Virus record (IMG/VR): IMGVR_UViG_3300028048_000071
Coordinates: 68,933 to 132,932 of that record
Strand: one strand, 5' to 3'
DNA from: a virus
Lineage: Duplodnaviria > Caudoviricetes
DNA: 64,000 bases
The notes under the pieces: model-generated
Database searches by the model: none
What the model was told of the DNA's origin: nothing
Seen by the model: the letters and a program-made list of their open reading frames with translations, nothing else
Shown here: piece after piece, positions 8,223 to 17,702 of the stretch
Layout: each line of letters opens with the position of its first letter
Numbering within the stretch: the first letter of the stretch is position 1
Program-made: the position numbers and the translations under genes

Positions 8223-9716
8223 ATGGCAAAAAGTTTTTTAGTTGATATTAACTTAAACAAAAATGAATTGCAAAATGCTATTGTTCAAAATTTAGCAACT
8301 AACCCAAGCAATCCAAAGCCAGGTCAAGTATATTTTAATACTACAACAAATAGATTTAGAGTATATACTGGAACTGAATGGGATGAAATGGGTACTGGTG
8401 GTGGAACAGTAACTAGCGTTGATGCTGCTAATACAGATGGGTCATTAACTATTTCTGGTAATCCAATTACTTCATCTGGAACAATAACTGTTGACCACAC
8501 AAATACAATTAGTGCCGTTACAACTTCTGGAATATATCCAATAAAAGTTGATGCAAACGGACATATCACTGAGACTGGAACTGCTTTAGGTAATGTTTCA
8601 ACTACTGCGGCAGGTTTACTTCCAGCATTTAGTTCTGCAAACCAATCATCTACAGCTGTAGCAACAAATGATTATGTTTGGGATGCAACTACAAATAAAT
8701 ATTCAAAATTACCAGCAAACGCATTTAAAGATACTACTTATACAGATGGAACTGCTGGTTATACTTTAAAAGCAAAACAAGATAGTGAAGGAAATCAAAT
8801 TAATACAACTTATGCACCATTAGCAAGTCCAGCATTTACTGGAACTCCAACTGCACCAAAAGCAACTGCTGGTGATAGTAGCGACCAAATCGCAACTACA
8901 TCATTTGTTAGTGAGGCTTTAGGGGCTGTATCTGGTGCAATGCACTTTAAAGGTACTGTTGGTACTGGTGGAACTGCCGGAACTTCTTTACCAACTAGCG
9001 GAGTAACTATTGGAGACACATATAAAGTTGTAACTAAAGGAACTTATGCTGGTCAAGCTGCTGGTGTAGGAGACTTATTTATAGCAACTGCTACTACTCC
9101 AACTTGGGCTTATGTACCATCTGGAGATGACGCTGCTGTAACAAGTATTACTGCTGGTACTGGTTTAACTGGTGGAACAATAACTACTACTGGTACTATT
9201 GCTTTAGCTACAAGTGGTGTTTCTGCTGGTACATATCAAGGTATAACTGTTGATACTTATGGTAGAGTAACATCTGCTCAAGATATGGGTTATACAACAA
9301 ACGAAGGTACTGTAACTTCAGTAGGAATAACTGCGGGTAGCGGTATTTCTGTATCTGGTAGTCCAATAACTACAAGTGGTTCTATTACAGTAGGACATAC
9401 AAATTCAATAACTGCACAATCTACATCTGGAGTATATCCAATCAAAATAGATGCAAATGGACATATCACAGAATATGGTAGTGCTGTAACTATTTTAAAG
9501 AAATATGCTGCTACTATAACAGGAGATGCAAGTAAAACAAGTTTTACTATAACTCATAATTTAGGAAGCAGAGATGTAACAGTTCAAGTATATGATGGTA
9601 CAAGCTATGAAGAAGTAATTGTTGATGTAACAAGAACTAGTACTTCAGTTGTAACTATCGGATTCGCTAGTGCACCTGCAACAGGAGCTACTTATAGAGT
9701 TGTAGTAATCGGCTAA
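8223..9716 (+). CDS. Tail fibre protein
   Basis: Thr/Gly-rich; APLASPAFTGTPTAP; repeated GTVTSV...PIT.SG.I.V.HTN; ITHNLG C-terminus. Confidence 0.8.
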   Translation: MAKSFLVDINLNKNELQNAIVQNLATNPSNPKPGQVYFNTTTNRFRVYTGTEWDEMGTGGGTVTSVDAANTDGSLTISGNPITSSGTITVDHTNTISAVTTSGIYPIKVDANGHITETGTALGNVSTTAAGLLPAFSSANQSSTAVATNDYVWDATTNKYSKLPANAFKDTTYTDGTAGYTLKAKQDSEGNQINTTYAPLASPAFTGTPTAPKATAGDSSDQIATTSFVSEALGAVSGAMHFKGTVGTGGTAGTSLPTSGVTIGDTYKVVTKGTYAGQAAGVGDLFIATATTPTWAYVPSGDDAAVTSITAGTGLTGGTITTTGTIALATSGVSAGTYQGITVDTYGRVTSAQDMGYTTNEGTVTSVGITAGSGISVSGSPITTSGSITVGHTNSITAQSTSGVYPIKIDANGHITEYGSAVTILKKYAATITGDASKTSFTITHNLGSRDVTVQVYDGTSYEEVIVDVTRTSTSVVTIGFASAPATGATYRVVVIG

Positions 9717-9732: not shown

Positions 9733-10836
9733 ATGCAACTATTAAGTACATTAAATAGTCTTGATAATGTTGCTGATGGTTCTACAAGAAAGCTTCTTAA
9801 AACCGCCACTTCAAGCGGTTCTGGGAATGCAGTAACCGCAGTTAGCATATCAGGCGACACTTTAACTTATACATTAGGTTCATCGTTTTCATTGAGTAAT
9901 CATACTCACGATGCAGCCACAACGTCTGCAGCTGGTTTTTTATCAGCCGCAGACAAAAAGAAATTAGATGCAACTTCAGGTTATTATGGAACTTGTAGTA
10001 CAGCAAAAGGGACTGCCGCAAAAGTTGTTGATTGTAGTAATTATGTTTTAGCAACTGGTGCAGTTATTTATGTCAAATTTACCAACGCCAATGAGTATAA
10101 TGGTACTGCGACATTAAATGTTAATGGTACTGGAGCAAAAGATATTGCTAGAGTAGGTACAACAAAAACAACCAGATATTATTGGAGTGCAGGAGAAGTA
10201 GTCGGTTTTGTATATGATGGTACAAATTATATAATAATTGAAAGAGGAACTGCCTCAACTACTTATTATGGTGTTACAAAATTAATAACAACCGCAACAA
10301 ATACATCTGAGGCTTTGGCGTTAACTCCAAAAGCATTAAATAATTTTGCACAAAATATGATTGCTAATTATGCAGTATATTCATCTTCTTCTACCTATAA
10401 TGTAGGAGATAGAGTTAGATATAGTTATAATACATATGAATGTATAGTGGCTATTTCAACAGCAGAAGCGTGGACTGCAGCTCATTGGAAGGCTTTAGAC
10501 CCTTTACAAACACAGATAGATGAAAAATCTGAGGTTTCTATAAGTAGGAATTTAACTTCTGGAGAAAAAATAGGTACTATAACTATAGATGGAACAGCAA
10601 CTGATTTATATGCTCCTGCTACAGGTAGTGTTAATACGTCTTTGGCTAGTCCACAACAAACATATTATTTAACAGGAGTTCAAACAACTGCTGCTGGGCA
10701 AGGTAATTTATATAATAGTTATTTGTCTAGTACATATACAGGAATAAAATATGTAACTTCTACTTCTCAAGAAGGTGGAAGTTTATATGTAGACGACAGA
10801 GAAGTCGTTACAGGATTATATTATGAAATTTCATAA
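9733..10836 (+). CDS. Tail fibre protein
   Basis: ATLNVNGTGAK, YDGTNY and a CBM5/12-like YNVGDRV motif. Confidence 0.75.
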   Translation: MQLLSTLNSLDNVADGSTRKLLKTATSSGSGNAVTAVSISGDTLTYTLGSSFSLSNHTHDAATTSAAGFLSAADKKKLDATSGYYGTCSTAKGTAAKVVDCSNYVLATGAVIYVKFTNANEYNGTATLNVNGTGAKDIARVGTTKTTRYYWSAGEVVGFVYDGTNYIIIERGTASTTYYGVTKLITTATNTSEALALTPKALNNFAQNMIANYAVYSSSSTYNVGDRVRYSYNTYECIVAISTAEAWTAAHWKALDPLQTQIDEKSEVSISRNLTSGEKIGTITIDGTATDLYAPATGSVNTSLASPQQTYYLTGVQTTAAGQGNLYNSYLSSTYTGIKYVTSTSQEGGSLYVDDREVVTGLYYEIS

Positions 10837-10860: not shown

Positions 10861-13095
10861 ATGGCTACAGTTAAGTTTTATAATGATAAAGAAAAAACTC
10901 AACAAGTATATCCAGAAATTGACCCAGATGGAAATTATCCTGGTGTCACAGTTGGACTTGCCAATAACCTTGTTTCACCAGACGGTATAAATGATATAGA
11001 TACTTGGCAATATCGTTCAACTGGTGGAGAACTTGATATTACTGATGGATATGCAACATTAAAGAAACTTATTGGTACAACTGAATCTTCAACTATAGAA
11101 GAAAGTCTAACACATAACTTAATTACAACTGGTGTAACTTCTGTAACTGTTGATACAAGTACATTTAAAAGTCAAATAAGTACAAGTGGAACATATAATT
11201 TTATATATACTCCAACAATTACTTATTCATCTGCTTTAGTATATTCATTAAATAAAAGCACTTTTGCTAATTATGTAAGTCAAGCAACTGGAACATATAC
11301 ATTTACTTATACTGCTGTTGTTTCACCAGTAGATACATCTAGTGTTATACAAACTTTTACACAATCAACATTTGTTAACAAAGTAAATGAAACACCAGAT
11401 ACTTATACATTTACATATAATGGTTCAAATTGGCAATTAGATGGAACAAACGTAACAATGAGTCAATATGGTATTACAACAAAAGGAACTGAAACAAGTG
11501 GAACAACAATTACTGTTTATTATACAAGTAATTCTTGGTATTACAATAATGCCTCAATTTCTATGAGTAATTATGGTATTTCAACAACTGGCTCTGAATC
11601 TGTTGGAGACACAATTGCTATATCTTATACATCTAATGACTGGATGTTAAATAACACTGCAATAACACTTGCTGATTACGGAATTGTAATTACAGGAGGA
11701 ACTGCAGCAATTGACGATAATATTCAAATAATATTTATTGCTGAACAAGTAGGTGTAATTCAAACTGCAAATCCAACTGGATTATATAGTGTTGGAATGA
11801 ACCAATTTAATAAAGATGGTTCTCAAATATTTAGAAATTATACATTAAATTCATCTGGTGGAATAAGTGCGGCAACTGGATATTATGTAATTTATTTTAA
11901 ATGTATAGGAGGAGAAACTTATACTATTTATAATGAAACACCTTCATCTACTGTTAGAGTTGGTTATAGTGCAACTATCCCAACTACATCAAGCACTGTT
12001 ACATTATTAAGTACAGTTTCATCATCTGAATGGGCTGATGTTCTAGTTAATGACTCATATAAATCACACTATTATCCAAATAATCCTGGATATTTAGTTG
12101 TTGCGACAAGTGACATTGAAAATTTATGTTGTCATTTAACTTGGGAAGCAGTAAAGGATGATGTATATGAATCTTATTTTAATTATACATTACCTATTCC
12201 ATACACTGATAAAAATGGAGATGTAATAACAACTTATGGTTTAGTAAACTTAGATGATGGTACTCAATATTATGATGAAATAAATTTTGAAGACCTTAAA
12301 TGGTATAAGAGAACAACTAGAATTGAATATAGTGCTGAAAACTTGGCAACTGTTCAAGCATTAGGTGTTCCATATTTATATGATGCAAATTGGATTTATT
12401 ATGGTGTTAATACAGTTGAATATAACTTAGAAGACGTTTCTTATTCATATGAAATATCAAACTATGGTACTGAAGAGTTTATTAACTCTGCATTGCCATT
12501 AACTGCAACAATATTCTATCAAGAAAACTTAAGAGATAAAATAAGATTCTCTATGGAAGTTATTGATAATAAAGTTGAGAAAATTGATAGTGCTTCTACT
12601 TATACAAAATATTCAAGTGCAAAAGCATCTTATAACCTAGATAAAGCATTAAGACATATACTTGGTCTTGATGTAGATACATTCTCAACAAGCAGCACTT
12701 ATGCTGTTGGTGATTATGTTGTATACGATGGTAAATTGTGGAAATGTACCACTGCCGTAACAAGTGCAGGAGCTTGGACTGGTAATGGATTATCTGTTAG
12801 AAGTAATAATAATGGAATATTACTTGATATGGACACAACTAAATTTTTAAAATTCTTAGATTCAGATAGACCTGGAAGTCCTTGTGGAATTCCTGAACTT
12901 TATGCAAATGATGGCGGTACATACCAAATTCATTTAACATATGCAACAACATCAAACGATTATCACTTCGCTAATGCTGCTGAATTAGAAGAACAAACTG
13001 GTCTTGTAGTAAGTAGTGCAACTGGTGGAGTATCATTTAGTTATAATAGTTCTTCTGCAAATTGGGAAGAATCATATTTATTTAAAGCAAATTAA
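10861..13095 (+). CDS. Large tail/receptor-binding protein
   Basis: 744 aa, Thr/Ser/Tyr-rich internal repeats; YAVGDYVVYDGKLWKC (CBM5/12-like). Confidence 0.7.
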   Translation: MATVKFYNDKEKTQQVYPEIDPDGNYPGVTVGLANNLVSPDGINDIDTWQYRSTGGELDITDGYATLKKLIGTTESSTIEESLTHNLITTGVTSVTVDTSTFKSQISTSGTYNFIYTPTITYSSALVYSLNKSTFANYVSQATGTYTFTYTAVVSPVDTSSVIQTFTQSTFVNKVNETPDTYTFTYNGSNWQLDGTNVTMSQYGITTKGTETSGTTITVYYTSNSWYYNNASISMSNYGISTTGSESVGDTIAISYTSNDWMLNNTAITLADYGIVITGGTAAIDDNIQIIFIAEQVGVIQTANPTGLYSVGMNQFNKDGSQIFRNYTLNSSGGISAATGYYVIYFKCIGGETYTIYNETPSSTVRVGYSATIPTTSSTVTLLSTVSSSEWADVLVNDSYKSHYYPNNPGYLVVATSDIENLCCHLTWEAVKDDVYESYFNYTLPIPYTDKNGDVITTYGLVNLDDGTQYYDEINFEDLKWYKRTTRIEYSAENLATVQALGVPYLYDANWIYYGVNTVEYNLEDVSYSYEISNYGTEEFINSALPLTATIFYQENLRDKIRFSMEVIDNKVEKIDSASTYTKYSSAKASYNLDKALRHILGLDVDTFSTSSTYAVGDYVVYDGKLWKCTTAVTSAGAWTGNGLSVRSNNNGILLDMDTTKFLKFLDSDRPGSPCGIPELYANDGGTYQIHLTYATTSNDYHFANAAELEEQTGLVVSSATGGVSFSYNSSSANWEESYLFKAN

Positions 13096-13117
13096 TGAAT
13101 GAAAGGAGAATAATTTT

Positions 13118-13279
13118 ATGTTAGAAATAATTAAATCATTCTTCTCCCCTGTAGGGGGGGGCGAACAAGCTTCGCTTCACAGAATGGAAATATACAAAGG
13201 AAGGAGGATTTGCGTCAAGAGTATAGTAACTCTTCAAGCAATTCCGACTTCAATAGAAAGAGAGGTGAAGAGTATCTAA
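13118..13279 (+). CDS. Leader peptide 1 (53 aa in the present G8 state); phase-variable
   Basis: AAAGGAG SD at 13102, ATG 13118, MLEIIKSFFSPVGGGEQ...VKSI, TAA 13277; crosses the G8 tract. Confidence 0.8.
   Translation: MLEIIKSFFSPVGGGEQASLHRMEIYKGRRICVKSIVTLQAIPTSIEREVKSI
13154..13161 (+). repeat. Poly-G tract 1 (G8)
   Basis: G homopolymer in an AT-rich genome, inside the leader ORF. Confidence 0.95.
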
Positions 13280-13359
13280 AATCTTCTTATGGAAGATTTG
13301 CAGATGGAAGCAACGCTTCTGTCTTAATCTCTTCATCTTTCGCAAGTGAAAATATCGTA

Positions 13360-13368
13360 GGGGGGGGG
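13360..13368 (+). repeat. Poly-G tract 2 (G9)
   Basis: Direct reading. Confidence 0.95.
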
Positions 13369-13494
13369 CAGCTACGCTCGAATAATTATTCAGCAAGCAG
13401 TCGCTCTTATAAAGGAGGTGAAGGCAATTACGCTAGCTTAATGTCTAGTGATTTTGCCGGAACCGAGACAATGTTAAACCCTGACCGCATAGTC

Positions 13495-13503
13495 GGGGGG
13501 GGG
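13495..13503 (+). repeat. Poly-G tract 3 (G9)
   Basis: Direct reading. Confidence 0.95.
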
Positions 13504-13650
13504 CGAAATCCATTTGGATTCGTCTTCAAAGAAAGGGGGCAAGCCACTATTTAGACTTGCCTCTTATACACGAAATGATTTCTCTTTCAAGAAGGGAGGT
13601 GCAGGCTTAACAGTCTGTACTCCTTTTTATTATGAAGGAGGTGTGTGTTA

Positions 13651-14034
13651 ATGCAAATTAATAAAGACCTTATTATTAGTGGAACTAATATGACTTTAGG
13701 CGATACAGCCTATAAAGATATATATTCAACAACTGAAACCAAGACTAATAAGGTTTGGATTGATGGTCGTACTATATATAGAAAGGTTATTACTGGAAAT
13801 TTATCTCAGGCACAATGGAATCACGGAATAACTTTTGATACTATTGTTTCTATAGAAGGTGTTTTTATAAATACTAATTCTGGTAATACATTTAATATAC
13901 CTAGTACAAGACCTGATTTTCCTGATTATCAAGTTGGTGTATTTGTGAATAATACATTTATAACTTTAGAACGTGCTACTGGTGCTCAACGTGCGGATAT
14001 GAGTTTTTATGTAGTTTTAGAATATGTGAAATAA
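13651..14034 (+). CDS. Variable fibre-tip/receptor-binding cassette 1
   Basis: MQINKDL start; YSTTETKTNKVWIDGRTIYRK fibre C-terminal motif. Confidence 0.75.
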   Translation: MQINKDLIISGTNMTLGDTAYKDIYSTTETKTNKVWIDGRTIYRKVITGNLSQAQWNHGITFDTIVSIEGVFINTNSGNTFNIPSTRPDFPDYQVGVFVNNTFITLERATGAQRADMSFYVVLEYVK

Positions 14035-14063
14035 CACACACAACAGGCTAACAGCCTAACATT

Positions 14064-14471
14064 ATGGCTAAATTTACAATTAATAAAGACTTCTTTGTAG
14101 GTGATACAAATTATTCTTTAGAGGATATTCCTTTTGGAGTAGAACCCGAAGTCCCATCTAATCAAAATTATTTTAAATTTGGGAATATGATGATTTGTTG
14201 GGGTTGGAGAAACGTAACTTTAAACTGGAATGGGAATGGAGCTTATGCTGATTTTAATTTAGCAAACGATGGAACTCCATATAAAGATACTGCATATAGA
14301 ATTGTTGGGAGTTATGCTGGAAGCACAGCTTATTATGCAGGAAACTGGTGCTGGTTTGAAAGCAAAGGGACGACAAGTGCAAGAGTAAATTGCTGGTGTG
14401 AACAAGCTAATAAACCAACATCTATTATTATAGGTTTTATAGCCATTGGAAGATGGCGTGATGCTGAATAA
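14064..14471 (+). CDS. Cassette 2 (gp53-like fibre C-terminal domain)
   Basis: MAKFTINKDF start; YFKFGNMMICWG...FIAIGRW. Confidence 0.75.
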   Translation: MAKFTINKDFFVGDTNYSLEDIPFGVEPEVPSNQNYFKFGNMMICWGWRNVTLNWNGNGAYADFNLANDGTPYKDTAYRIVGSYAGSTAYYAGNWCWFESKGTTSARVNCWCEQANKPTSIIIGFIAIGRWRDAE

Positions 14472-14507
14472 AAACATTTCGTGATGAGCAAGCCTTTTGG
14501 CGAACTT

Positions 14508-14918
14508 ATGAAGATTAATAAAGATTTAATCGTAGAGGGTACAAATCATACATTAGAAGATATACCTTTTGATATTGATTTATCTGATGTGTATTCTACA
14601 AATGAAACAAAAACAAATAAGGTTTGGATAGATAACAGACCTATATATAGAAGAGTCGTTACCGGTACAGTTACCGCTGCAGGTCAAGGACAAACTGTAA
14701 CCACTATAAGTAATATAAGACAAATCTTGACTATAAGAGGAGTTATGTATTCTAATTATGGTCAATGGTGGAATATTCCTAATTATCACGGAGAAGCAGG
14801 ATATGTAAATTCCATATACTGCGATGCAAATGGAAGAGTCAATTTAGGAGTTGGGAACTTTTATAGTGCCGGTAAACCTTTTATAATTATTTTAGAGTAT
14901 ACAAAATCTACTGACTAA
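14508..14918 (+). CDS. Cassette 3 (paralogue of cassette 1)
   Basis: MKINKDL start chosen by paralogy; YSTNETKTNKVWIDNRPIYRR...LEYTK. Confidence 0.75.
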   Translation: MKINKDLIVEGTNHTLEDIPFDIDLSDVYSTNETKTNKVWIDNRPIYRRVVTGTVTAAGQGQTVTTISNIRQILTIRGVMYSNYGQWWNIPNYHGEAGYVNSIYCDANGRVNLGVGNFYSAGKPFIIILEYTKSTD

Positions 14919-14954
14919 CATTGTCTGAACGGCAAAAAAAATAATGCCGATTCT

Positions 14955-15377
14955 ATGAAAATAAACAAAGACTTAATTATTAGTGATACAAATTATACTT
15001 TAGGAGATGTTGCTGATTTTATATCAAATAAAATAGAAATTAAAGAGCTTGCTTCTACAACAGGAAGTGGCGAAAACATTACAATAGATTTGACCGATAG
15101 TTATAAAAATTATGACTTTTTATTAGTTCAATGGAGTCCATATTCTTTATATGGGAATATTGATTTTTATATTATAGATACTGCTACAATTTTATCTACA
15201 CAATATGGAAATTATCCTTATGAAACCGGACACCTTCAAACAACATCAGTATGGTCAAATGTCGTATTTGGCTTTTCATCAACAACTAGATTTATAGCTA
15301 AATGTGCAAATACAGGAACTTGGGGAAAAGGTTCTTTTAAAATAATTTCTATTAAAGGAATAAAATTACCTCACTAA
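14955..15377 (+). CDS. Cassette 4
   Basis: MKINKDL start; IDLTDSYKNYDFL...IKGIK. Confidence 0.7.
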   Translation: MKINKDLIISDTNYTLGDVADFISNKIEIKELASTTGSGENITIDLTDSYKNYDFLLVQWSPYSLYGNIDFYIIDTATILSTQYGNYPYETGHLQTTSVWSNVVFGFSSTTRFIAKCANTGTWGKGSFKIISIKGIKLPH

Positions 15378-15422
15378 TCACATAATAGAGCGACCGCTCG
15401 TAAATGAGCAAAAGCGAATTAA

Positions 15423-15800
15423 ATGATTATAAACACAGATTTAATCTACCCTATCGGTAGTATATATTTAAGCGTCAACGCAACCAATCCGTCAAAGTAT
15501 TTTGGCGGAGCTTGGGAGCAAATTACATCAGACGCATATTTAAAGATAGTAACTCAAAATGCTGGTTCTTTAGGTGGAACCAGTGTAGACCACAAGATAC
15601 CTATTGAAAGTATGCCTAGTCACGACCACGGTGTGTACGGAGCATTAACTGGAGAAAATAAACCTATTACCAATACTGGTAATGATTGGGGAGTTAATAC
15701 AACACACGGATGGACTACAAATGCCATTTCAAAGACTGGCGGTGGACAGGCTTACTATCCTTATTACTATGGCGTTTATGTTTGGAAAAGAACTGCTTAA
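15423..15800 (+). CDS. Cassette 5 (YPxGSIY...WKRTA family)
   Basis: YPIGSIYLSVNATNPS...MPSHDH...VYVWKRTA. Confidence 0.8.
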   Translation: MIINTDLIYPIGSIYLSVNATNPSKYFGGAWEQITSDAYLKIVTQNAGSLGGTSVDHKIPIESMPSHDHGVYGALTGENKPITNTGNDWGVNTTHGWTTNAISKTGGGQAYYPYYYGVYVWKRTA

Positions 15801-15843
15801 ATATACTCTCTTATGATGTTTTGAAGATTTAGATACAAATCTT

Positions 15844-16233
15844 ATGATTATAAATACAAATATGTTGTTAGCAGCCTATCCTGTAGGTTCGCTATATTTA
15901 ACAACAAATGAAATAAACCCAGGAACCTTATTTGGTGGAACCTGGGAAAAATTGACTGGGGATGCTTATCTTAAAATAGTGACAAGTAATCCTGGTCAAT
16001 ATGATGGTACGTCAGACCAACATAAAATACCTATCAATAGTATGCCTTCTCACAGACACGGTAATAGAGTTACTTTAAATATGTCTCAAGGTGCTGGTCA
16101 AGATAGAAGCCTTGTAGTTGGTGGAGGTCAAGTATGGAATACTGCGGACAATTATCAAAATCAATTTGTTGGTGGTGGACAACCTTATTATCCATATTAT
16201 TATGGTATTTATGTTTGGAGACGTACAGCATAA
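15844..16233 (+). CDS. Cassette 6 (YPxGS...WRRTA family); predicted ON in this genotype
   Basis: YPVGSLYL...MPSHRH...IYVWRRTA. Confidence 0.8.
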   Translation: MIINTNMLLAAYPVGSLYLTTNEINPGTLFGGTWEKLTGDAYLKIVTSNPGQYDGTSDQHKIPINSMPSHRHGNRVTLNMSQGAGQDRSLVVGGGQVWNTADNYQNQFVGGGQPYYPYYYGIYVWRRTA

Positions 16234-16261
16234 TCGGAATTGCTTAATGCAATAAAACTTT

Positions 16262-16435
16262 ATGAAAAATATTTTATTAAATAAAATCCTTCACATCGGG
16301 GGGGGGCAGAAATGTCTGCTCTTCACAAGAAAGGAGGGTTGGCTATTATTTTGTAACGTCAACTCTTCAAGGAATGGAGGTGGCAGACATTTAATATCTG
16401 CTATCTCTTGTGGAGGTGTAATCTTATGCAAATAA
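16262..16435 (+). CDS. Leader peptide 2 (57 aa in the present G9 state); phase-variable
   Basis: ATG 16262, MKNILLNKILHIGGGQK..., TAA 16433 overlapping the start of cassette 7; no SD of its own. Confidence 0.75.
   Translation: MKNILLNKILHIGGGQKCLLFTRKEGWLLFCNVNSSRNGGGRHLISAISCGGVILCK
16298..16306 (+). repeat. Poly-G tract 4 (G9)
   Basis: Direct reading. Confidence 0.95.
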
Positions 16436-16818
16436 ACGTAGATTTAATATATCCTATAGGTTCTTTATATTTAACAACGTCTACTGTATCACCAGCAGTT
16501 TTGTTTGGTGGTACTTGGGAACGCATTAAAGGTAGATGTATTGTAGGTGTAGACGAAAATGACACCGACTTTAATACTGTTAGTAAAACCGGCGGTGAAA
16601 AAACACATACATTGACTGTGGATGAAATGCCAGCACACAATCACAATATTCAAGGTGCGATGAATGGTGCTTCTGGAAGTAGTTGGTGTGTTGCTTTAAA
16701 TAGTGATAGAAGCGTAAACTGGTCTATCACTAATGGGTCACAAAATAAAGGTGGTGGACAAGCACATAACAATCTACAACCTTATTACACTGCTTATATA
16801 TGGCGAAGAACCGCATAA
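16426..16818 (+). CDS. Cassette 7
   Basis: GGAGG SD, MQINVDLIYPIGSLY...WRRTA. Confidence 0.8.
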   Translation: MQINVDLIYPIGSLYLTTSTVSPAVLFGGTWERIKGRCIVGVDENDTDFNTVSKTGGEKTHTLTVDEMPAHNHNIQGAMNGASGSSWCVALNSDRSVNWSITNGSQNKGGGQAHNNLQPYYTAYIWRRTA

Positions 16819-16849
16819 GATTACTTAGATATTAAATTGTCGAATAATT

Positions 16850-17227
16850 ATGAAAATAAACTTAGATTTTATATATCCTGTTGGAAGTATTTATATGAGT
16901 GTTAATGCTACAAATCCAGGAATTTTATTTGGAGGAACTTGGACTCAATTAAAAGATAGGTTCTTACTTGGTGCTGGAAATACATATTCCGCTGGAGATA
17001 CTGGTGGAGAGGCAACTCATACGTTAACTTATAATGAAATGCCTCAACATAGTCACACATTGTATAATGAAAATGCAAGTGGATGGACTTTAAGTAAAGC
17101 ATCTTTAAAAACAGGAACAAATAAAGGATATTCTGGTAATATCCAAATTGGAGATGCTGGAGGTAATCAAGCACATAATAATATGCCTCCATATCTAGTA
17201 GTCTATATGTGGAAAAGAACTGCATAA
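16850..17227 (+). CDS. Cassette 8
   Basis: MKINLDFIYPVGSIY...PPYLVVYMWKRTA. Confidence 0.8.
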   Translation: MKINLDFIYPVGSIYMSVNATNPGILFGGTWTQLKDRFLLGAGNTYSAGDTGGEATHTLTYNEMPQHSHTLYNENASGWTLSKASLKTGTNKGYSGNIQIGDAGGNQAHNNMPPYLVVYMWKRTA

Positions 17228-17273
17228 ATTATTTTGACAAAAAGAGTTGACACTAAAATAATAGTGTTATAAT

Positions 17274-17702
17274 ATGAAAATAAATGAAGATTTAATAATT
17301 AATGGAACGGATTTAAATTTAAATGATATAGTACAAAAAATATCGGCACTTGAAAAATATCAAGTAGAATATAATGCTGATTCAATTACTTTGACATTTA
17401 CAAATAAATATCCTTGTATAGCAATTACATATATGTCTCACGCAGGATGGGGATTTGGAGGAAATGAATGGATTTGGAATGCTGATTTAACTAATTCTGT
17501 TCATTTAGGTTATACTAAAGCCTATGTTAATGGTAATGACTTATTATCAAGATTTATGAGTTCTGTGTCAATTAACTATTGTCCAACTGCGGGAGTAGAA
17601 CATACAACTGTAAGAACTACAACCAAGGGTAACTCTGGTAATAGCAATGGACAATCAGTATGTGTTATTTGTTTACCATTAATAACTAATTCAAAAGAAT
17701 AA
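17274..17702 (+). CDS. Cassette 9
   Basis: MKINEDL start; unrelated C-terminal domain. Confidence 0.7.
   Translation: MKINEDLIINGTDLNLNDIVQKISALEKYQVEYNADSITLTFTNKYPCIAITYMSHAGWGFGGNEWIWNADLTNSVHLGYTKAYVNGNDLLSRFMSSVSINYCPTAGVEHTTVRTTTKGNSGNSNGQSVCVICLPLITNSKE

Follow-up and report, generated by a model that had tools for sequence, protein, structure and literature searches.

How might a phage that carries nine alternative tail genes side by side, most of them without a Shine-Dalgarno (SD) sequence of their own, express one of them at a time? The question is raised by positions 13,100 to 17,702 of a 64,000-nt stretch of viral DNA (the window; positions 68,933 to 132,932 of IMG/VR record IMGVR_UViG_3300028048_000071, Caudoviricetes). 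At the end of the tail-fibre region, directly 3′ of the gene for a 744-aa protein, we found nine open reading frames (ORFs) of 125-142 aa, all on the + strand, in agreement with the nine receptor-binding cassettes that an original prediction, made from the letters of the window, had placed there. The selector locus is real and is conserved across related gut phages, and it probably works as a heritable one-of-N translational selector.

The choice would be written in four G tracts carried by two leader ORFs, leader 1 (ATG 13118) and leader 2 (ATG 16262). These tracts (G8 at 13154-13161 and G9 at 13360-13368, 13495-13503 and 16298-16306) are the sole runs of six or more G or C in the whole genome (132,932 nt, 28.5% G+C, catalogued as complete, of which the window is one part). 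Runs of 6-7 are absent, runs of 8 or more would be expected 0.04 times by chance, and no G run of six or more was found inside the cassettes. When the leaders were translated at every tract length with genetic code 11, which this phage uses, leader 1 ended at 13224, 13277, 13383, 13439, 13552, 13608 or 13649, and leader 2 at 16354, 16392 or 16433. This reproduced all ten stops at the positions predicted for each tract length, and the ten stops correspond to the nine cassettes plus leader 2 as targets. One detail of the prediction was corrected: TAA 16433 is indeed a stop, but it sits 7 nt within cassette 7 and not on the cassette 7 ATG. The present tract state ends leader 1 at TAA 13277. If all frames were equally likely, cassette 6 would be selected with a frequency of 1/3, cassettes 4, 5, 7, 8 and 9 with 1/9 each, and cassettes 1-3 with 1/27 each. 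The features of the locus are as follows (window coordinates; pairings are predicted):

10861-13095, +: gene for the 744-aa protein, which resembles tail fibres, has a motif of the CBM5/12 type and ends in the conserved W.ESYLFKA; presumably bears the tips
13102-13120, +: leader 1 ribosome-binding site and ATG 13118; sole readily open SD in leader 1 (2.4 kcal/mol)
13154-13161, +: tract 1, G8; G7, G9 and G10 in relatives
13198-13256, +: element 1, SD 13203-13207, TAG 13224 in hairpin loop; pairs with leader 2 address
13257-13359, +: element 2, SD 13261-13265, TAA 13277, tether about 13349-13361; pairs with cassette 6 address
13360-13410, +: tract 2 (G9, doubling as SD) and element 3, TAA 13383; pairs with cassette 5 address
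13411-13480, +: element 4, SD 13414-13418, TAA 13439, tether about 13466-13477; pairs with cassette 4 address
13495-13503, +: tract 3, G9; G8 to G11 in relatives
13530-13588, +: element 5, SD 13535-13539, TAG 13552, tether about 13570-13578; pairs with cassette 3 address
13589-13630, +: element 6, SD 13595-13599, TAA 13608 in hairpin loop; pairs with cassette 2 address
13631-14034, +: cassette 1, own SD 13637-13641, TAATG overlap with stop 13649; start region pairs with cassette 2 address
14024-14471, +: address and SD-less cassette 2, ATG 14064; gp53-like or H-type-lectin-like tip, on weak evidence
14472-14918, +: address and SD-less cassette 3, ATG 14508; cassette 1 paralogue
14919-15377, +: address and SD-less cassette 4, ATG 14955; unnamed phage family
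15378-15800, +: address and SD-less cassette 5, ATG 15423; Gp10_C
15801-16233, +: address and SD-less cassette 6, ATG 15844; Gp10_C; predicted ON in the present genotype
16234-16435, +: address and SD-less leader 2, ATG 16262, tract 4 (G9, 16298-16306), SDs 16333, 16376 and 16412, stops 16354, 16392 and 16433
16426-16818, +: cassette 7, own SD inside leader 2; Gp10_C; start region pairs over 12 bp with cassette 8 address
16819-17227, +: address and SD-less cassette 8, ATG 16850; Gp10_C
17228-17702, +: address and SD-less cassette 9, ATG 17274; weak jelly-roll match under the Pfam cut-off

SD strength was taken as the duplex energy with a Bacillus-type anti-SD. By this measure an SD-like motif of -13 to -20 kcal/mol lies 8-21 nt upstream of each stop, and the eight distant targets (cassettes 2-6, 8 and 9, and leader 2) reach only -3.5 to +1.3 kcal/mol and are thus SD-less. 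Outside the locus, 87% of the ORFs of the genome reach -8 kcal/mol or better. Cassettes 1 and 7, which touch the leaders, each have an SD of their own. A leader element consists of the SD, a hairpin arm, a stop-bearing loop, the second arm and often an extra unpaired stretch, and an address of 30-45 nt located 5′ of each distant target is complementary to one such element. We mapped elements to targets blindly, as an optimal assignment on shuffle-normalised duplex energies between the elements and the regions upstream of the targets. The assignment returned exactly the eight distant stop-to-target pairs that had been proposed from complementarity (sum Z -35.9, compared with -10.4 ± 2.2 for the shuffled null), and seven of the eight were row-best. 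A first duplex matrix with fixed segments missed the cassette 4 pair and gave weak cassette 2 and cassette 6 pairs; segments taken from the SD end recovered them, and the choice of segment therefore matters.

The order of elements and addresses is nested, the first element matching the last target, so that one mRNA is predicted to be able to tether every target while the SDs stay shut. SD sequestration, the tethers and the geometry of the junctions are predictions of RNA folding. In a joint fold of leader 1 with six addresses, four elements each formed a tether of 10-18 bp with the address that belongs to them, element 1 was tethered weakly, and the cassette 1 start region was tethered to the cassette 2 address. 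In this fold the SDs were mostly paired, with opening costs of 5-12 kcal/mol as against 2.4 kcal/mol for the SD of the leader itself; these costs replaced a control on isolated-leader folds, which often pair the leader's own SD too. Predicted folds gave the orphan SDs a median pairing probability of 0.97 and the stops one of 0.04. A strong SD was present just upstream of 50 of 54 stops, which lie in or beside the predicted SD-hiding structure, compared with 42% of positions. After a predicted exchange of arms, the unpaired length of the resulting SD-helix-AUG would have a median of 11 nt, with 8-14 nt in 26 of 27 junctions (three are omitted: two that stay in the tether state and one that is truncated), and the SD-to-AUG loops would span 0.4-3 kb. 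The local helix of T4 gene 25 likewise cuts spacing to 11 nt, a value measured differently from that of our junctions (PMC3014915). The start of the leader-adjacent cassette found its best pairing in the next address in 11 of 15 cases. Such pairing would usually hold the adjacent cassette shut, and may thus both repress that cassette and tether the second target.

Some 20 informative loci were found by way of homologues of the 744-aa protein; an alignment search of viral and metagenome contigs with Gp10_C returned mostly unrelated tail genes, and cassette arrays only in L006 and L103. The number of stops equalled the number of cassettes plus sub-leaders in nine arrays that are complete or nearly so (5, 7 or 9 cassettes; one to three leaders): the window array, L001, L169 and L234 (10 stops), L167 and L004 (7), L173 (6), L180 (5) and L223 (11). 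L223 has three leaders, and its ninth cassette is cut at the contig end with the address present. The nine arrays represent about five independent designs, and the expectation that cassettes should be as many as leader stops in related phages holds in all nine, across trees of differing shape. Blind assignment was nested and one-to-one in every one of them (sum Z -22 to -46, compared with nulls of -3 to -11), and in the pooled five divergent designs the cognate address ranked first of 30 for 26 of 30 elements. Complementarity is thus kept where the sequence differs wholly. Paired address bases were also more conserved than unpaired ones (0.91 versus 0.79; 0.99 versus 0.87). In L234, whose leader is that of L167, the cassette 7 address of L167 precedes a further leader instead; three leaves are gained in this way, and the array has nine cassettes.

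The leaders themselves show frame-keeping selection. At least seven indels separate the between-tract sequences of leaders of the window and L167 types, all multiples of 3, and the stops that follow each tract are always in different frames. The repeats in relatives have units of 1, 2 or 4 nt, never 3: (CAAT)n together with poly-G in L173 and L180, where TGA is read as Trp, (ATCA)13 and (AC)9 in L185, and (AT)9-10 in L223. The proposal of a poly-G selector therefore stands as that of a repeat-programmed leader, whose slippery element need not be poly-G.

In agreement with the idea that tracts vary, lengths differ at the DNA level between near-identical phages, with leaders 1-4 substitutions apart per about 400 nt. 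Tract 1 is G10 in L230 and L232 and G9 in L231 and L233, which have an identical tail protein, and tract 3 is G8, G10 and G9 in L002, L003 and L004, respectively. The sequencing-run data consist of contigs only; at tract 2, which is G9 in the window, the Logan contig of run X1, perhaps the run from which the window comes, has G10, and at tract 4 one of run X4 has G8. Across loci the predicted ON states are cassettes 1, 2, 3, 5, 6 and 7. Contigs of X1 that end at tract 3, and one of X2 that ends at tract 2, may reflect heterogeneity or G-run dropout and were not counted; X2 is an RNA library, and its contigs do not show transcription. As a separate observation, tracts 1 and 3 pair with C-rich stretches immediately 5′ (13144-13161 and 13482-13503), a pairing that might hide the SD-like G runs and may shift with tract length.

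The cassette proteins point to what is being switched. Cassettes 5-8 carry Gp10_C, and the domain of cassettes 1 and 3 lies at the very C-terminal end of longer tail and collagen fibres. One homologue of the 744-aa protein, P0075, has a cassette-type domain fused at residues 665-779. Cassette 2 gave a gp53-like lead and weak fold matches to fibre tips and H-type lectins; fold searches for cassettes 1 and 2 gave no match at E 0.001 or better. Because the cassettes match distal tail domains, a role at the tail tip is suggested, and they probably bind receptors. Between relatives, the proteins that occupy a given slot share 19-99% identity while the addresses persist, a divergence such as would be expected of adsorption genes. 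Nearly every cassette (85 of 87, leaderless relatives included) starts with M..IN.D. Stand-alone homologues of the 744-aa protein nearly all retain the W.ESYLFKA motif (13049-13095), even at 40% identity, and the long fused forms P0072, P0074, P0075, P0078 and P0097 lack it; docking might take place through these two motifs.

The count rule, the blind map in relatives and the tract variation together support the tail-tip selector first proposed, and we think it likely that the locus is an enzyme-free multiplexer for tip switching in rumen and gut phages, in which slippage writes the position of a stop, split ribosome-binding sites acting over kilobases express one of up to nine cassettes, and sub-leaders extend the choice. 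Slipped-strand changes in simple repeats of a non-functional leader ORF would set its frame, and each frame would end at its own stop, in a hairpin loop just 3′ of a hairpin-hidden SD. A ribosome terminating in an element would open that element and leave the downstream tether in place. The element arms would then swap partners with the address and give an SD-helix-AUG with about 11 unpaired nt, spanning 0.4-3 kb, on which the terminating ribosome or a new 30S subunit would start the chosen cassette. Ribosomes that read through an element would strip its tether, and elements behind the stop would remain shut. At the last stop of each leader, the cassette next to it would be started by the usual coupling of overlapping genes, and the choice becomes a tree where one of the leaves leads to a sub-leader. 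The chosen protein of about 130 aa would be an exchangeable distal tail tip, as its domain homology suggests, and lineages would therefore differ in adsorption specificity. The earlier idea of reinitiation at a start held by pairing keeps its pairing map and is refined in that the leader would donate the SD, making a split ribosome-binding site. The same ribosome may reinitiate, and selection would be strictly one of nine.

Several observations weigh against this mechanism. All RNA structures are predictions, and in two-strand folds some OFF states lie just 0-2 kcal/mol below the ON state, so that leak is plausible. In a crude fold with a ribosome footprint at six distant stops, the cognate tether was nearest at three, behind a non-cognate contact at one and lost at two. 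Three arrays break the count rule: L230/L231 have one targetless stop, one cassette module having been lost; L182 has one tract and one cassette; and L185 has five stops and four cassettes, with two addresses unmatched. These two are copies or near copies of addresses in arrays of the window type, which on a post hoc reading suggests recent cassette import. Close relatives show little covariation (of 461 cells, 4 are two-sided, 9 one-sided and 37 broken), and swapping among the window array, L169 and L001 gave a flat outcome (15 better, 19 worse). Tract lengths are the same in the near-identical pairs L169/L170, L231/L233 and L185/L192; sequencing errors can also produce differences in G runs between assemblies and are not excluded in single cases. 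Finally, the cassettes other than those with Gp10_C have weak fold matches only (E 0.01-0.07).

The best-surviving alternative is that the split sites are basally active without a leader ribosome, so that the stop only biases a mixture and virions carry several tips. All tethers can form simultaneously, the ON-OFF gaps are small at some elements, and SD pairing with 16S rRNA exceeds the gap in 38 of 38 tested. Mixed tips also seem to be tolerated, since leaderless relatives express up to six cassettes together; L171, L172, L176, L178, L191, L193, L194 and L197 carry between one and six cassettes without any tract, and every cassette there has an SD or an overlap of its own, a contrast with the SD-less targets that also speaks for the selector. 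Against such a mixture, the opening cost of the orphan SDs in the joint fold exceeds that of the leader's SD, the start of the adjacent cassette is predicted to be sequestered by the next address, and the strict conservation of frame implies a strong effect of stop position. We consider this reading unlikely. Among the simpler loci, the single cassette of L171 sits on the SD that elsewhere starts the leader, and a local SD-hairpin-AUG was seen only in L181, ahead of its single cassette, an arrangement that is a plausible precursor of the selector.

RNA polymerase slippage on homopolymers is well established, and the frame could in principle be set anew in each transcript in this way, or by ribosomal frameshifting, so that a cell makes a mixture and genotype is secondary. 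This is a good deal less likely still, because DNA tract lengths differ between near-identical genomes, and (CAAT)n, (AT)n and (AC)n in place of poly-G suit replication slippage better than frameshifting.

It is highly improbable that the complementarity instead guides a DNA or RNA rearrangement (hairpin-assisted deletion, template switching or splicing) that joins the SD to one cassette. Element and address hairpins are partly alike, and the genome encodes an RNA ligase as well as a tyrosine recombinase (PF00589, E 1e-27; G000:C1:5676-6206, outside the window); the latter, about 76 kb from the locus, qualifies the claim of a system without recombinase, which is right for the locus itself and, genome-wide, for serine invertase and reverse transcriptase. 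Rearrangement would leave the frame-keeping indels, the stops in loops and the count rule unexplained, no joint between a leader element and an address was listed in the contigs of four runs, and deletion is one-way, yet full arrays persist.

Bypassing of the T4 gene 60 type, in which peptidyl-tRNA would hop from the codon before the stop to a matched cassette codon and make a fusion, recalls the stem-loop at the gene 60 take-off site (PMC3014915), since the stops here also lie in stem-loops. An in-frame take-off codon occurs near the cognate start in only 12 of 30 cases, compared with 10.8 expected from non-cognate targets, the cassettes have their own M..IN.D starts even in leaderless relatives, and the leader peptide differs in every state, all of which makes bypassing scarcely credible. 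We give equally little credence to attenuation of transcription as in pil1, with the stop position deciding hairpin termination: hairpin 13598-13621 with its T-rich tail scores as terminator-like, but its T-run forms the anti-SD arm and is missing from the equivalent place in L167, L173 and L180, and attenuation would give 5′-nested sets rather than single distant targets and would not explain the SD-less cassettes and their addresses. Chance was rejected as an explanation, as were inversion and diversity-generating retroelements (DGRs), all cassettes being on the + strand and the genome giving no match to PF00239 (serine invertase) or PF00078 (reverse transcriptase).

The sequencing runs that contain the stretch are chiefly bovine and sheep gut samples, and relatives come from assemblies of rumen, human gut and rabbit material, some of them placed in bins of Clostridia or Bacilli. 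The host is probably a member of the Bacillota, since strong SD use and the endolysin fit. A homologue search found no cultured phage matching the 744-aa protein. In the cassette 9 address (17234-17275) there are two TTGACA boxes with near-consensus -10 motifs (11/12 and 10/12), which could be an internal promoter or a chance occurrence; the latter is considered because the equivalent L167 address lacks them.

Other observations concern the relatives. TGA encodes Trp (code 4) in several of them (L173, L175-L177, L180, L181, L189, L190, L193 and L194), and gene callers split cassettes in such genomes (L175 compared with L176). In L230 (10915-11005) and L231 (7781-7871), a short ORF without a tract follows the cassette 6 address and at its end overlaps the cassette by ATGA; the cassette has its own hairpin-hidden SD, and the arrangement forms a fixed relay, perhaps a degenerate sub-leader. 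The sites 8828-8866, 10739-10772, 11831-11867 and 12310-12400 of L223 cover three related GC-rich hairpins between cassettes and, close to the end of the contig, a 28-nt unit that occurs about three times. GATGAGCT forms the core of small GC-rich hairpins (L001:5447-5490, L230:8230-8260, L222, and run X4 at window position 16224) that some relatives have immediately 5′ of leader 1 or between cassettes and that the window lacks; they are possibly a mobile or stabilising element. The tail-protein match in L004 (9001-11640) crosses two stop codons, and that homologue is therefore split or rearranged in its C-terminal part. An unrelated prophage contig, L220 (11956-12868), has a long (ATCA)n at the 5′ end of an apparent adenine methyltransferase gene, likely an ordinary phase-variable locus.

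If the proposed mechanism is true, phages have a route to tip switching beside inversion, retroelement mutagenesis and independent on/off tracts, and an exclusive choice among many genes can be made wholly at translation. Bacterial ribosomes could then start on an SD and an AUG joined across kilobases, and about 40 natural element-address pairs would be available to compare reinitiation with RNA unfolding in translational coupling. Gene content would overstate phage expression, and tract lengths in metagenomes would report the tip under selection. The original prediction knew of no described system that combines these parts; our literature searches, which covered mainly open-access sources, likewise found the parts known and no combined system.

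The choice of one of many tail-fibre tips is made by enzymatic DNA rearrangement or rewriting in the Mu Gin and P1 Cin invertons, in shufflons and in DGRs; unlike these, the array is fixed, with all cassettes in one orientation, and searches of the genome detected neither an invertase nor a reverse transcriptase. In Streptococcus gallolyticus pil1, the stop of a repeat-variable leader ORF moves relative to a hairpin and causes phase variation (Danne et al. 2014, PMC3894217). As there, the number of repeats in the leader shifts the stop relative to an RNA hairpin, heritably. In contrast, pil1 has one tract that sets low or high output of one operon by transcription anti-termination, whereas the phage would use serial tracts and sub-leaders to route translation to one of 5-9 genes, and it has no conserved intrinsic terminator (one terminator-like hairpin in the window, without a T-tail in L167, L173 and L180). 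In repY/repZ of ColIb-P9 (IncI), a ribosome terminating in the leader opens a sequestered site that longer-range pairing holds (PMC4705826), and the leader stops of the phage also lie in or beside a predicted SD-hiding structure; repZ, however, is one fixed target with its SD beside the start, at a range of about 100 nt, under antisense control and without repeats, whereas in the phage up to 3 kb separate the SD from the AUG, and mutation would pick the target. In T4 genes 25 and 38, an SD-AUG helix shortens the spacing from 27 to 11 and from 22 to 5 nt (PMC3014915), as the helix predicted here would bring SD and AUG to a working distance, but the T4 hairpins are local and constitutive, whereas the phage loop holds whole genes and its helix competes with an SD-hiding hairpin. 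The closest purpose is that of Campylobacter Fletchervirus, where, as Sorensen 2021 is cited in bioRxiv 10.1101/2025.10.21.683753, which also covers phage contingency loci, G7-11 tracts vary receptor-binding proteins; by that account each gene contains its own tract, which turns it on or off without regard to the others, whereas here the cassettes are tract-free and the choice would be central and, by design, mutually exclusive. The locus thus departs in one defining test from each family compared, except the general contingency locus, with which it shares an ORF repeat unit that is not a multiple of 3 and a repeat length that varies among near-identical genomes.

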